A stretch of DNA of 18,288 bases from a virus (Duplodnaviria; Heunggongvirae; Uroviricota; Caudoviricetes). The notes under the pieces were generated by a model. It was given only the letters and a program-made list of their open reading frames with translations. It was not told the DNA's origin and ran no database searches. The position numbers were made by a program, and so were the translations under genes. The first letter of the stretch is position 1. Each line of letters begins with the position of its first letter. The stretch is taken from IMG/VR virus record IMGVR_UViG_2703718771_000014; one strand, written 5' to 3'. This document shows positions 3,056 to 9,330 of this stretch, piece by piece.

Positions 3056-6000
3056 TCAGATGCTCAGTGCTTCAAGACGACGAAGATCAAAGTCGTTTAA
3101 TTCGTCGGTATAACTTTCGGTAATCGGTGCTGGCCAGTTGTTTGTCTCCAGGGCTTCGTTTATCTGGCGTAGCGTCCGGCGATATTCCTGTCGACCAAGT
3201 TCCAGGAGTTCCTGCGAGGCTTCCACGACTGCCACCCAGTGATAGCCAGCATCTTTGTTGACGAAGATCCAGAAAAATTTGTCCAGGTTTGCCACATCGC
3301 AATACATTGCGGCGCTGAGGTGATAATCACGCTCAATAATTTCACGGTGCAGGCGATCTTTAAGTCGTTCCTGTCGCACATAACCGAGGCTGACTGACTT
3401 CACGTCAGCGCAAATGCTTTCGTATGGCAGCCGGATTTCGATATCAGGACGGACCCTGATTTCCAGCCCGGTTTCTTCATCAAACCCGAAATAGCTGATT
3501 TCAGATTTGCGATCCGGGTGGTTGAGTAGCCTTGCTGCATCGGTATTGTTTTGCAGTGCCGCGTGAATATTTTTTGCCTGTTCATACATCTCCGGACTGA
3601 TAAACGTTTTCCCGGCATTTTCTTCTTGCTGGCGTTTTTGCCAGTCCTCCAGTGTCACCAGTTCCGGGCGAATTTTCCGTGCGATTTCGGTTAATTGCTC
3701 TTTTGTGCCACTGATGTTGTAAGGCAAAGATTTAGCACGTTCTTTTTTTGCCAGTTCTGGGTCTACAGTTTCAATTTGATCCAGAAGCTGCTCCCGTGCT
3801 CCACTGGTTTTCAACAGAGGAGGGAGGCTTGCGTTGTATTCTTTAATACAGGCTTTCATTGCTGATGCTGTGTGTTTTTCCCCCTCAGGAATACGCCGAA
3901 ATTCCACCGGAAGCGAACCGTAAAGGATGCCTGTTTCTTCGGCCCCGGCACTTACAGACAGTGGCTGTATAAGAGTGCTGTTGTAGCTTTCGATCCACTC
4001 TTTCATCTGCTCTGGTGTCATCAGTGCTGGCAGACTGGCATTGTGTTTTTTAATGATGGCGATCAGTTCGCTAGAAGTAGTAACCACATATTCAGGAACC
4101 GGTACCGGAATGGCATATTCATCAGCGAATTTATCCGTTTCCAGAACATAGCTGTGAATGATCCGCCCACGCAGCAGTGCATCACTTTCCTCGTTCGGAA
4201 TAGTTCCGGCAATGTGCCGTCCGTGGTAATACATCAGGCTGATACGGGCATCCTTCAGCATCGTGCTGCTTATTCCGTTGGCGGAGTGATAAACCTCGTT
4301 CGGGAGGTTTTCATAGCGGCCAGGCTCGAAATATGACGGCCACATGATTTCAGTTGCTACAGGAGCTGACGCTTCACCAGTTTCATCACTGCAATCACGA
4401 TGCGGATCGCTGCCAGCATTCTCATTGTGCGGATGTTCAGCGCCTTCCATTTCCTCCGGATCATTTTCCTTAGCTTCAACCTGATTCTCTTCATCGAATG
4501 TTTCCTGGTATGTTGCGTCGCCCATCACCGCACCACAGTCAGGGCAGTTATCCCCGCCAGTCTGACCGCAGGCATTGCAGACTATTTCCGGTTTCTGTTG
4601 CACTACTGGCTCAGGTTGTTTCACATCCGGGCTGGTTTTTACAGTTTCTGGCGTGTTTTGTTTCGTTTCTGGCTGGTTCTGGTACACAGAGTCGCGAGTC
4701 TGGATCCCCTTTACCCATTTCGGATCGTTCGGGTCGCTAATTCCGTCAACAAATTCACCACGTGATGCAGCAAGCAATTTATCGGCATCGACAGGATTTT
4801 TTGATGGAATGTTTTTCCGGGCTTCATGGAGTTCTGCCCGCAGTTTCTGATATTTCGCATCAACAGAATTTACCTGTGACTGAGCATCCAGCGGCTGCGT
4901 GTCCTGATGATGTTCAGTTGCATCCGGTTCCACTGTTTCAGCCGTTGCCTGTTTATCTGCCATTGCGCAAGATGGTTGCGGTTTTTCTTCACCATCGTGT
5001 TTTCCTTCTTCTGTTACACGCTGCGGCATTGGGGCAGAGGAACGACCGCAGGCAATATCCACGATTTCCGGATCAGGGTTGGCATGATCGGTTTCAATCA
5101 GCACCTTGTTCAGATATTCAGTGACATGCGCAGGGATAACCTCGATCCCAATTGGTGCTTCTTTTACGGACGCAACCACGATGGCGCGGGAATAATCCAG
5201 CCCGCCAGGCATGGTGATGAATTTGTCGCGGAAAACAGAAAAGGGCGGTTTATTTTCAGAGATAATTTCCTCGACACGTTTAGCGTGTGCCGGATGAAGG
5301 TTATAAATGTCCACGTCCATTGAACGGGCCAGGACGCCAGTGGCTACGTCGCGCGCCAGTGACGTCAGATCGTGAACGAAACCTTCGCCGCGATCGGTGA
5401 GGTTCCCGCCGCCAGCATTAGCGCCGGAAGCCGTGCGCGTGATGCGTGAAACACGATTTCCTTTCATCCACTCTTTTGTCAGCAGACCACGATCGGTGTA
5501 GTCTGCGTCCAGGTATGCTTCGAAAAAAGCAGTCATCAGCCCCAGGCTTGAATTGCCTGGATTAGGGAAAACTCTGTCAGTATCACGCACCAGTTTGTGG
5601 AGATCGCGAATTTCCAGCGGGTCGAGCAGGCTGGTTTTGTGGGAAACAGCCAGGGCAGTAACAGCTGGTAGTTCTTCAGCTCGTGCAATGTGTAATGCCT
5701 GGAGTTCGTCGCGTGAAACGTGCGTTACCGGTTTTTCGCTGCCGTGTTGAGCAAGCCAGCGAATGGGCAGCTCCTGACCGGAAATCGGGAGTAGCATATT
5801 CTCCTCAATCTCCGTCATGTCTTCGCCATTAACATTGGTATTGTCAGTGCTGGCTGGTTTGTCCTGCGCAGAGGATGAGGGCGCGATAAATACCATTGTG
5901 ATGCCATCTTCCCCGCCTTTTTTGTAACGGTTGCAGAATTCCGTATCAAATACGCCCTCTGGTGGAAGGTCATCAACAACGGGCAAATTGACGCGAACAG

Positions 6001-6181
6001 GTTTTTTAAAGTCATCTTCATCGTAGCCAGCATCGTCAATCGCAACAGCACCACGGGATATGGCAATGGATAATTTTTTCGCTTCAGCCCAGTAGAAACC
6101 GCCTTTAATACCGAGACGTTTTCTTACTTTGTCATTTTTTGCTTCGTAATACAGTGGGTAAACTTGTTTATCGGTGCTCAT
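3056..6181 (-). CDS. recE: Exodeoxyribonuclease VIII (RecE), 1041 aa
   Basis: Track ORF. From about residue 110 onward ([38 protein letters not shown]...) it is nearly identical to K-12 RecE as I recall it, including the [16 protein letters not shown] segment and the C-terminal nuclease domain. The N-terminus is longer and divergent. Confidence 0.93.
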
Positions 6182-6252
6182 TGTTTTTTTAACCTCAACT
6201 TAGATTAAAATTACTGCGAGTGATGAATAAATGTCCCAGGTTCTTCACTCAG

Positions 6253-6284
6253 GCCTGCACAGTGTGCAGGCTTTCTTTTTTTTC
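6253..6284 (+). terminator. Plus-strand intrinsic terminator-like hairpin between racC and recE (antisense to the operon)
   Basis: GCCTGCACA-G-TGTGCAGGC stem followed by TTTCTTTTTTTT on the plus strand. On the minus strand the hairpin is not followed by a U tract. Confidence 0.45.
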
Positions 6285-6311
6285 AGATTTCACCCTTTGA
6301 TTTCATTGCAA

Positions 6312-6557
6312 TCAGAGTTGCCAGAAATTCGGCTTTTTTTCTGCGGGCAGATTCTTTCCGATATGCACCAGGCACATTTTTTTGACGCCTTCGTTAAGTG
6401 TTTTAACGTTGCCTGATGGACCGTCGATATCAACCACAGTGAAAGGGGTTTCTTTATTTTCTGTTTTAATCACGTAGCCAATACGCTTTCCTTCCAGGCT
6501 GACTTCGTGAACAATGTCATCAGTAGTAACAACAGTGGCTTCATAACTGGTAATCAT
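6312..6557 (-). CDS. racC: RacC, small Rac prophage protein
   Basis: The ATG at 6557 is preceded by AAGGAG. The translation MITSYEATVVTTDDIVHEVSLEGKRIGYVIKTENK... matches my recollection of K-12 RacC. The track ORF extends upstream to 6605. Confidence 0.8.
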   Translation of the reverse strand: MITSYEATVVTTDDIVHEVSLEGKRIGYVIKTENKETPFTVVDIDGPSGNVKTLNEGVKKMCLVHIGKNLPAEKKPNFWQL

Positions 6558-6631
6558 GTTTTTCTCCTTAATTAAGGTTGAGCGAATCCCTGCCATTGCT
6601 GGCATAAATTCAGTTTCGGATAGTCAGTTAA

Positions 6632-6802
6632 TTAAAGTTCGTGTGCCATCTGGTCTTTTTCGGCACAGATTTCACTACAATATTTTTTCATTTCCGTCGT
6701 TGGTATAACTCCACGCATGAAATGAAGTGGTCTTGTAATGATTTTGCTTTCTTCAATTTCTTTATTGCAAAGGTGATAAGCACATTTTATTTTCTTAGTC
6801 AT
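6632..6802 (-). CDS. ydaE: YdaE, small Cys-rich metal-binding protein, 56 aa (below the track cut-off; translated by hand)
   Basis: Hand translation gives [56 protein letters not shown]. Its ATG overlaps the kilR stop by 1 nt (TAATG). It matches my recollection of K-12 YdaE. Confidence 0.75.
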   Translation of the reverse strand: MTKKIKCAYHLCNKEIEESKIITRPLHFMRGVIPTTEMKKYCSEICAEKDQMAHEL

Positions 6803-7023
6803 TACCATGACTCCGCCTTTACAGGTAAACCATCACGACCGAGGAAGACTCTAATCATGCAGTCAGAAATGCATGTTTTTGTAGTCAGGCTACGAATATA
6901 AAGTTTTCGCTTTTTAATATTGTTTGCCGAGGCGATATATGTCCGACCTTCATGAAGAACATAATCGCCAGGGGTCACACACTGACGTGGTATTTCATCA
7001 GTTCCGAAGTGATGAGCAATCAT
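6802..7023 (-). CDS. kilR: KilR, FtsZ-targeting cell-division inhibitor, 73 aa
   Basis: The ATG at 7023 gives [40 protein letters not shown]..., matching my recollection of K-12 KilR. The track ORF starts 4 codons upstream. Confidence 0.85.
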
Positions 7024-7592
7024 AATTATCTCCATTTTTACAAATGAATTTTGTCGATGCGGTGCCTGGTGCCTCCAGGTGACGTTAACCAGTTAACAAT
7101 TAACGCCGGATACAGAGAATCCACCCATAACACTGTTTTTGGTTTTAACTGTTCCGCGTGCGCTTAGCCGCATTCACCGCATCACAAAATTCACTTTAAA
7201 AAGGGCGGCAGAGCAGCCACGGAGTAAAACTGATACCGCCAAACGTCACCAGAAAATTGATAACAGAGGGCGTTGCAGCGGGGTTGTCACTTAAGCGTAT
7301 GGTCAACCTGACAACCCGGTGTCCTCAATGGGGAAGGAATAACCCCGCCATACTTACCGCCGCGCCATTTCGCGGAGTGCCACAACCGGAAGCGCACGTT
7401 CGAAGAAATCTAACGACAAGCCTTCTGAGGGAAAGAGCTTCGCCGTACGCTTTCGCGTTATGCCCTGACTTTTCAGGGAAATATCCTTTCAGTAAACTGT
7501 CAGTACCGGATTCTTATCCGTGTCCGGCGCACGACCACACGTGACAGCGTGTTGGTCTCCATTTTTAACCCAGAACCTCAATGGAGGATAAA

Positions 7593-7802
7593 ATGCCAAA
7601 CAAAAAAAGAAATCCGCTTATTGAAAAACAGATTGAATGCCTGGTAAATCAACTCAGGCAATCAGGGTTATTAAAAACTCATTCAGAGTTGAGGCTCACA
7701 GAATCAGCATTCGACGATAAATTAAATAATGTCCTTTATAATGGCATTATTGATTTTAATCGTTCTGTTGGTCGCCGCGGCCCTGCTGGTGTTTCCTTAT
7801 AA
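7593..7802 (+). CDS. Hypothetical 69-aa protein, convergent with the 212-aa gene
   Basis: The ATG at 7593 is preceded by GGAGGA at 5-nt spacing. The stop codon (7800..7802) abuts the stop of the minus-strand gene (7803..7805). The gene looks AT-rich by eye. No family recognised. Confidence 0.45.
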   Translation: MPNKKRNPLIEKQIECLVNQLRQSGLLKTHSELRLTESAFDDKLNNVLYNGIIDFNRSVGRRGPAGVSL

Positions 7803-8441
7803 TTACCAGTCAATCCAGAGTGGACCGTGTTCAGCGTAAATATAACTGTACACATCCAGATTATATTTGTGGTCTGTTAAGAACAGGCCGCAAATACATG
7901 CCGAAGCTTCCAGTGCAGCGGCTCTGTTACTGAATAACCATGTAGCAACATTCCAGCGTTTTTCTGCATCCCAGTCTTTCTCAAGGCCTGATACCATGAA
8001 GAAACCGTTAGTGTTGCCATCAAATAATTCTGTTTCCAAATTTTTAAGCAATGCCTGATGGACTCTTGCCAGGTATTCCGCCGGAATTTCGCCACGAATT
8101 CTGATGAGATTGTCATAAACAAACATGTTCCCCGCATATGGCGATTTTTCTTTCTTGTTTTTTAAACCAGCATCATGAGCAAACTGATCAATTTCTTCTT
8201 CCGTTGGTTTCGTATTGATGTTTTGCGCTGTCGTTTCTGCAATTTTATTTGCCACACTCTCTGAGTCGTGTTTATTTATAGACGCACAGAAATACAATCC
8301 GGTAAACGCATCGCGCACATTACGAGCCATATTATCAGTGTCTTTTTTCGTTACCGATTCCAATTCAAGTTCGTTCAGACGATGACGAAGTGTGTGTGCT
8401 GCAATCTCCTGGATTGAAGGAGGTAAATCTTTAAATTCCAT
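7803..8441 (-). CDS. Hypothetical 212-aa protein with no recognisable family; downstream gene of the repressor-adjacent module
   Basis: Track ORF 7803..8453. The ATG at 8441 (MEFKDLPPS...) is preceded by GAGG at about 8 nt. There is an 11-nt gap to the upstream small gene. I see no Walker A motif, no predicted transmembrane segment and no familiar nuclease motif. Confidence 0.7.
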   Translation of the reverse strand: MEFKDLPPSIQEIAAHTLRHRLNELELESVTKKDTDNMARNVRDAFTGLYFCASINKHDSESVANKIAETTAQNINTKPTEEEIDQFAHDAGLKNKKEKSPYAGNMFVYDNLIRIRGEIPAEYLARVHQALLKNLETELFDGNTNGFFMVSGLEKDWDAEKRWNVATWLFSNRAAALEASACICGLFLTDHKYNLDVYSYIYAEHGPLWIDW

Positions 8442-8452
8442 CGTCAACCTCA

Positions 8453-8605
8453 TTAGTCGGAGTTTCTTGCTAACCAGCGATGCGCGCCAGCTTCGGTTTT
8501 AAACGATTTGCTTTTGGTATACGTCATGGCGGTGAATGTGCCGTCCTGATTGGGAAACACGCCACATACCAGAGATTCGTTGTTGCCAAGATCGATAGTA
8601 TCCAT
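8453..8605 (-). CDS. Small 50-aa protein (possibly YdaG/YdaF-like), first gene of the module
   Basis: The track ORF starts at a TTG at 8668. The internal ATG at 8605 is preceded by GAGG at 7 nt and gives MDTIDLGNNESLVCGVFPNQDGTFTAMTYTKSKSFKTEAGAHRWLARNSD. Confidence 0.55.
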   Translation of the reverse strand: MDTIDLGNNESLVCGVFPNQDGTFTAMTYTKSKSFKTEAGAHRWLARNSD

Positions 8606-8785
8606 GTTGACCTCATTTCCCCTTAACGCCGGGTGGCGGAACGTTTTATCTACTGCGCTTTGTATCAATCAACAACTGCCGTCATGTTCGTATGCCTCAG
8701 GCTGGCTACTTAGCCCTGTTCAGTGGCTGGATAACTCGAGGTATTGTCCAGCCGTTCTCTGGTGGGGCGTTGTTTGGATATGCTT

Positions 8786-8814: not shown

Positions 8815-8855
8815 CACGAAATGTGTTTTGTGGTGGGTGTCATATGATGATGGTA

Positions 8856-8880
8856 CAAAAAAGCCCGCTGATAGCGGGCT
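8856..8880 (-). terminator. Intrinsic terminator downstream of the repressor gene
   Basis: On the minus strand: AGCCCGC-TATCA-GCGGGCT followed by TTTTTTG, placed 30 nt after the repressor stop. Confidence 0.7.
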
Positions 8881-8910
8881 GATTGGCATATTACTGTGAT
8901 AGCAAGATCA

Positions 8911-9330
8911 TTACTCCGGTGGGGGATTATCTTTAAGCCTGCCTCTCAAATATTTTTCTACATACTCATCGATTTCTTTTAGCCGGACTTCAAATAGCTC
9001 AATCATTCGTTGTTGTTCTGAGCCAGGTAGCTGGTTAAACAACTCAAGAAGTTTTCGTTGGGATTCATTTAACCACAATTCAGAAGATTCCTGTTCTCCA
9101 AATAGGAGCTCAGGAGGAGATATGCCAAGTGCCTTTCCCAATACGACAGCGTCATGCACTCCAACATTTCTGCTGCCCGCCTCATAGTTACCTATACGCG
9201 ATTGCGTCCATCCGCAGATTTCAGCAAGTTTTCCTTGAGATAAACCAAGCTTCTGCCTGCGCTCTTTAAGACGCATTGCAATTTTGTCATTGAGCCTACT
9301 AGCGGCAATTTTTTCGTTTTCTTTTTCCAT
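8911..9330 (-). CDS. Prophage repressor, XRE-family HTH (CI/RacR analogue), 139 aa, no S24 peptidase domain
   Basis: Track ORF with an HTH segment (LGLSQGKLAEICGWTQSRIGNYEAG). It is divergent from the Cro-like gene across a 96-bp region carrying palindromes, followed by its own terminator. It is too short to carry a LexA-like autocleavage domain. Confidence 0.85.
   Translation of the reverse strand: MEKENEKIAASRLNDKIAMRLKERRQKLGLSQGKLAEICGWTQSRIGNYEAGSRNVGVHDAVVLGKALGISPPELLFGEQESSELWLNESQRKLLELFNQLPGSEQQRMIELFEVRLKEIDEYVEKYLRGRLKDNPPPE

Follow-up and report, generated by a model that had tools for sequence, protein, structure and literature searches.

By its pattern of substitutions, the 69-aa plus-strand ORF of the window (the whole 18,288-nt stretch of DNA analysed) is shown to be an intact protein-coding gene under purifying selection, and the comparison of loci shows that it forms, together with the 212-aa gene facing it, one cassette, which is exchanged as a whole between lambdoid prophages and P2/P4-like integrated elements. 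We lean towards the reading that the selected small gene and its partner make up a cassette occupying the sieB slot, in which the small gene would be expressed apart from the surrounding operon, linked to its partner and affected by antisense transcription. The gene pair is well defined and so far uncharacterised, and the arrangement itself is of a known kind.

Table 1. Features of the cassette and its surroundings, in window coordinates
Feature	Position	Strand	Remarks
dicB N-terminal remnant	7050-7133	-	annotated pseudogene; directly upstream of kil
DicF small RNA and terminator	7203..7254	-	Rfam RF00039, 75 bits (gathering 48), E = 6e-16; terminator-like site 7220-7205
Conserved DicF precursor region	7255..7533	-	downstream neighbour of the cassette; 93% to Qin
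Cassette-specific leader of the 69-aa gene	7534..7592	+	hairpin 7535-7555, then TCTCCATTTTT, then Shine-Dalgarno 7583-7588
69-aa gene	7593..7802	+	ATG at 7593, stop TAA 7800-7802; WP_001133037.1, phrog_4274
TAATTA, two stops back to back	7800..7805		plus-strand gene TAA 7800-7802; minus-strand gene stop 7803-7805 (TTA on the plus strand)
212-aa gene	7803..8441	-	WP_000394548.1; start ATG preceded by its own GAGG
C-terminal domain of the 212-aa protein, about aa 95-212	7803..8159	-	portion constantly accompanying the small gene
15-bp hairpin in the 212-aa coding sequence	7864..7896	+	62 nt past the 69-aa stop; without a U tract
N-terminal helical domain of the 212-aa protein, about aa 1-94	8160..8441	-	exchangeable; common to other phage families
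ydfA/ydaF-like DUF1391 gene	8453..8605	-	upstream neighbour of the cassette; Pfam PF07151 E = 7e-29
Strong intrinsic terminator after the repressor gene	8880-8862	-	terminator scan
HTH repressor gene, DicA/RacR position	8911-9330	-	HTH_3 E = 5e-13; early-left operon starts downstream

An exchangeable cassette in a Rac-type prophage

Around the pair, a 2-kb stretch matches the E. coli O145 RM9872 chromosome and many other O145 and O157 strains with 100% identity. The prophage in RM9872 adjoins ttcA and carries intR, xisR, ralR, recT, recE, kil, ydaT, ydaU and ydaV, a neighbour and a gene content which identify it as a Rac-type prophage. Along the minus strand the order is repressor, ydfA/ydaF-like gene (homologous to K-12 ydaF and Qin ydfA), 212-aa gene, DicF, dicB remnant, kil, ydaE, racC, recE and recT. 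Midway along this early-left operon, the other strand carries the 69-aa ORF, which is convergent with the gene upstream of it.

The Qin dicBF operon is expressed as one polycistronic transcript from a DicA-repressed promoter, out of which RNase III and RNase E excise DicF, and no internal promoter was found there (PMC10448788). The flanks of our cassette are common to this operon (ydfA-ydfB-ydfC-dicF-dicB), with 89% identity in the ydfA-like gene and 93% in the DicF precursor region and DicF; the precursor region is also about 90% identical to many lambdoid phages. In Qin the cassette is replaced by two genes of the operon strand, ydfB and ydfC, and YdfC is unrelated to the 212-aa protein. Unlike in Qin, dicB is present here only as a remnant, followed by Rac kil and recET, and this remnant looks like the join of a Qin-type dicBF segment with a Rac kil-recET segment.

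K-12 Rac is homologous up to 7241 and again from 8472, with its sieB in between. Homology to Qin covers 7043-7533 (93%) and 8460-8646, and that to some 80 sequenced phages likewise ends at 7533/7534. Together these breaks delimit an exchangeable cassette of about 7534-8459, comprising both genes and the leader; the same slot is filled by ydfB-ydfC in Qin and by sieB in K-12 Rac. The sequence-only reading of this DNA had supposed that a cargo cassette replaced ancestral sequence and that sieB was to be expected at this place. The second expectation was borne out by K-12 Rac, where sieB occupies the corresponding slot in the same orientation. As to the first, the region is indeed mosaic, but the breakpoints lie at the outer edges, at about 7534 and 8459, and not at the contact between the two stops. 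Both genes are A+T-rich, as had been judged by eye (GC 0.375-0.39 over 7600-7899 and 0.37-0.385 over 8000-8299); the left-hand prophage genes (6000-7100) are equally low at 0.34-0.43, so that composition does not mark the pair as a foreign insert.

Several further elements were seen in the surroundings of the cassette. K-12 Rac has a small RNA, kilS, annotated at the DicF position (compared with L002 7406-7503), where the window has full DicF; since homology to K-12 Rac ends within DicF, kilS would consist of the DicF 3' part and terminator with a different 5' end. A sub-threshold Rfam match to STnc100 (7016-7201, minus strand, 38 bits vs a gathering score of 47) falls on the dicB remnant, in the interval from DicF to kil. 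A weak Trp_leader match at 8855-8941 on the minus strand (27.5 bits vs gathering 41) was rejected, being really the intrinsic terminator after the repressor gene. The recE gene of the window (3056-6181, minus strand) has 1041 codons and that of K-12 has 2601 nt; their central parts do not align.

The 69-aa ORF is a conserved protein-coding gene

The ORF is preceded by a Shine-Dalgarno sequence, GGAGGA at 7583-7588, which is conserved among diverged copies; it had been recognised from the sequence alone, though with a spacing of 5 nt, and the spacer to the ATG is 4 nt (TAAA). RefSeq annotation of the 100% identical O145 genome gives both genes the same limits and names their products hypothetical proteins (accessions in Table 1). 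The frame is open and exactly 210 nt long in all diverged copies sampled except L026 (Salmonella, frameshifted) and L106 (viral, disrupted), two damaged copies which indicate that the gene is dispensable. Across E. coli, E. albertii and Salmonella, with dS up to about 0.6, dN/dS in the 69-aa frame is 0.13-0.25 (Fisher p 2e-3 to 5e-7). The five other frames over the gene contain 3-7 stops and give ratios of 0.3-4, purifying selection being found in the gene's own frame only.

Could the ORF nevertheless be untranslated, its conservation stemming from the minus-strand RNA, which would serve the DicF precursor transcript as a structured spacer? The region would lie within a processed polycistronic transcript, and both the leader and the downstream hairpin are structured. 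This explanation is nonetheless very unlikely, as third-position substitutions dominate the plus frame (23 vs 9 and 8), the low dN/dS is confined to the 69-aa frame, protein relatives are detected where DNA alignment already fails, and Qin produces DicF without the 69-aa sequence.

The product matches the profile of phrog_4274 over residues 1-69 of 69 (E = 1.2e-51), and alignments of the phrog_4274 / WP_001133037 family, to which it belongs, share the conserved core QIECLVNQL..SGLLK..S.F..KL..GI..FN. The protein is basic, is not hydrophobic and ends in a conserved tail, GRRGPAG; an AF2 model of low confidence (pLDDT 57.6) places helices at 8-24 and 40-58. When 1.84 billion proteins were searched with a profile (cut-off E <= 0.001), nine were returned, namely the intact small proteins P0024, P0066, P0067, P0069 and P0071, a frameshifted copy (P0036), and three long proteins that were rejected as tandem-repeat artefacts. 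Four further small relatives, 43-53% identical and with the core motifs kept, occur in unrelated elements. A search of species-representative genomes gave no match, and the family is narrow.

A strongly hydrophobic 36-aa ORF at 7729-7839, in the +2 frame across the junction of the two genes, was considered as a possible small membrane toxin and rejected: the start codon is missing in Salmonella, and in L004 a premature stop interrupts the frame.

Back-to-back stops in the sieB slot

The stops of the two genes abut with zero gap at 7802/7803, just as the sequence-only reading had stated, and form the hexamer TAATTA. This hexamer is invariant in L003-L011 and L021-L028, and all diverged E. coli and Salmonella loci examined have it. 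The proposal that the contact is a recombination junction does not hold, as the same TAATTA is found in 73 of 75 viral contigs and the genes travel together; the stop-to-stop contact is therefore an inherited feature of the cassette and not a recombination scar.

Abutting convergent stops are normal for the sieB slot. The ends of lambda sieB and N lie at 35036 and 35037, with TAA directly against CTA and a gap of 0 nt. In K-12 Rac, sieB and ydaF are convergent with a 4-nt overlap, and in P22 sieB faces gene 24 across a gap of 20 nt, the P22 record annotating a promoter and an RNA start of sieB's own. The 69-aa gene has the position of a sieB-type gene, lying antisense in the early-left operon and convergent with a promoter-proximal early gene. 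It thus resembles sieB of lambda, P22 and K-12 Rac in slot, in orientation against the operon and in convergent 3' ends, a likeness of position. The proteins differ: the 69-aa product is basic and looks soluble, SieB has 162-192 aa, and the sequences are dissimilar. Unlike sieB, which has no fixed partner domain, the 69-aa gene has one. The shared slot alone does not establish the 69-aa protein as a member of SieB.

The suggestion made on first reading, that a cargo cassette had cut a sieB-like gene down to its N-terminal part and so left this ORF, is refuted. Position and orientation do match those of K-12 Rac sieB, but the 69-aa protein has no sequence similarity to three SieB proteins. BLASTP gave no alignment at E <= 100 with SieB of K-12 Rac and of lambda, and merely a 3-residue chance match with that of P22 (E = 39). 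The lack of hydrophobicity and the full-length match to phrog_4274 argue in the same direction, as does the stop-stop junction, which is inherited and no breakpoint; in place of a remnant we find a full-length, conserved family present in many prophages.

Linkage to the C-terminal domain of the partner

The 212-aa protein is matched over its full length by phrog_2151 (E = 2e-147); an alternative 216-aa reading from the ATG at 8453 is likewise open. Its AF2 model, also of low confidence (pLDDT 63.3), is helical in the N-terminal half and alpha/beta in the C-terminal half. Residues 1-75 match phrog_1363, 9419, 6937 and 33007. YdfC was considered as a source of the N-terminal domain and showed no similarity to it. 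Profile searches of both proteins against Pfam, NCBIfam, PADLOC and PDB gave no match, and PHROGs gave two families, phrog_4274 and phrog_2151, both labelled 'unknown function' and with no record of a linkage between them. Fold searches in BFVD found nothing for the model of the 69-aa protein, and for that of the 212-aa protein only marginal Prp/YsxB-like and SUI1-like matches (E >= 3.6e-3). Nothing was found in the literature under the protein accession, 'Ybl81' or KilS.

The two genes occur together. Among 5426 complete E. coli genomes, at least 80% of the small-gene region was found in 597 and at least 80% of the 212-aa gene in 597, while 332 further genomes match only the 5' part of the 212-aa gene, which encodes the N-terminal domain. 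About 11% of the complete E. coli genomes thus have the cassette; most of these are Shiga-toxin-producing O157, O145 and O111 strains, and several prophages of a single genome often carry it. Among the IMG/VR loci with the small gene, the C-terminal domain of the partner is present in 75/75 and the zero gap with TAATTA in 73/75; one of the remaining two is disrupted (L106) and the other comes from a subfamily with an 11-nt overlap. In the IMG/VR partners, identity drops to 53% in the N-terminal domain and remains at 80-85% in the C-terminal domain. The pair stays intact at 67-90% partner identity, in immunity regions with YdaS/YdaT, with P22 Cro and an S24 repressor, or with ParE/PaaA2 neighbours.

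The more distant relatives narrow this linkage to one domain. The partner facing P0067 has 220 aa and overlaps by 53 nt; the one facing P0071 has 294 aa and overlaps by 11 nt. They are 32% (E = 3e-16) and 41% (E = 8e-14) identical, respectively, to the C-terminal domain of the 212-aa protein. Only this domain is common to them and the 212-aa protein. Their N-terminal parts differ, and the 294-aa relative alone has an HTH insert, which matches DicA and RmrA-type HTH models. Both loci are integrated elements with a P2-type Cox gene, one P0067 locus having in addition a faint Ash-family match. In Salmonella L006 the small gene adjoins an ORF limited to the C-terminal domain; the N-terminal domain is encoded in a separate 119-aa gene with its own leader copy and a convergent 64-aa ORF. 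P0066 and P0069 have no such partner and adjoin unrelated genes, and the GRRGPAG tail is absent from them too. From these comparisons the small protein is probably tied to the C-terminal domain of its partner, a domain-level link that draws on three deep lineages only.

Most sampled copies of the pair are more than 80% identical, and the linkage could reflect tight packing and shared descent. A distinctly less probable explanation than the one we lean towards, though one to be taken seriously, is accordingly that the small gene, as an accessory gene in its own right, touches the 212-aa gene only through compact packing and common descent, with no functional coupling. The ends of lambda sieB and N, and those of Rac sieB and ydaF, abut or overlap although these genes are functionally unrelated, the homologues P0066 and P0069 adjoin unrelated genes, and the sampled copies are mostly close relatives. 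Against independence, the N-terminal domain of the partner has been swapped or lost and the C-terminal domain kept in three deep subfamilies and Salmonella, and the genome counts of the two genes are equal, 597 and 597. Under the cassette reading that we favour, the small, basic, two-helix product would probably either cooperate with the C-terminal domain of the partner or oppose it, acting for instance as antidote, immunity factor or modulator.

A specific form of such coupling, a toxin-antidote-like pair, appears quite unlikely. Here the small protein would neutralise, in the lysogen, a leaky and harmful C-terminal domain of the 212-aa protein, or the reverse. The domain-level linkage would agree with this, as would the opposite orientation, which allows separate control, and the toxic products that the operon already has (DicF, kil); P22 SieB/Esc offers a model for the reversed roles, esc being annotated in the P22 record as protection against self-exclusion by SieB. 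However, toxin, antitoxin and defence models gave no match to either of the two window proteins, and in L026 the small gene is frameshifted yet the 200-aa partner is intact, which argues against an essential antidote. The co-directional bicistronic layout of type II toxin-antitoxin systems is also not the one found, the 69-aa and 212-aa genes being convergent.

Genes in the sieB slot are classic prophage-encoded exclusion functions. A far-reaching and unlikely possibility is that the small protein and the C-terminal domain of its partner constitute an undescribed two-gene system for prophage exclusion and defence, or for self-immunity, switched by antisense transcription. If so, a head-on antisense switch would set which gene is expressed, one of them in the lysogen and its counterpart solely upon induction, and the system would be a non-homologous counterpart of P22 sieB and esc.

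Probable expression of the small gene against the operon

The leader hairpin at 7535-7555 (CCACACG-TGACAG-CGTGTTGG) sits exactly on the mosaic boundary, and the stretch 7506-7592 is better conserved than the 69-aa ORF itself, Salmonella included. By analogy with sieB, we assume for the small gene a transcription of its own that does not depend on the repressed early-left operon. A scan of its conserved 59-87 nt leader for sigma-70 promoters gave none that was convincing, the single match (7565-7594) being placed such that it would initiate transcription within the ORF; promoter scans at the distant small-gene loci gave none that was convincing either.

At the other end of the gene, the remark that there is no room for terminators was right in so far as intergenic space is absent, but the plus strand can form a 15-bp hairpin within the 212-aa coding sequence, 62 nt beyond the 69-aa stop. 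The region around it folds with z = -4.0. Among 6 distinct sequences, 90% of the cells pair, vs 32-44% with the partner slid, and there are 2 compensatory pairs; 44 of 500 shuffles equal this pairing result. At the equivalent position L019 has a hairpin with a T-rich tail. The hairpin at 7864-7896 is a candidate for the 3'-end structure of the small-gene mRNA.

On the minus strand, a scan between the 212-aa gene and DicF found no terminator-like site, so that transcription of the operon should continue through the small gene in antisense. If both strands are transcribed, the layout of the genes makes their transcripts overlap. Upon derepression of the operon, the transcript running towards DicF, kil and recET would be antisense to the entire small gene, and collision together with RNA duplex formation would turn the small gene down, while the operon transcript could be trimmed. 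Such an antisense interplay of the small gene with the operon is plausible from the geometry of the locus, and we infer that the interference is likely either a by-product or a layer of control. Directly downstream of the cassette comes DicF, a small RNA on which work in O157 already exists, and a gene antisense to the operon, the sole route known to DicF, kil and recET, could influence the output of these products.

Two variants of the leader were observed among the related loci. In L003 and L005 the 6-nt loop of the leader hairpin, TGACAG, is changed to its exact reverse complement, CTGTCA, which suggests an inversion at the palindrome. In the Salmonella integrated element L006 (3227-3870), the leader (window 7506-7598, Shine-Dalgarno sequence and ATG included) is duplicated, and the second copy starts the different, plus-strand 64-aa ORF, which overlaps the 3' end of the minus-strand 119-aa gene. 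Judged by its layout, this is a second convergent pair built on the same plan.
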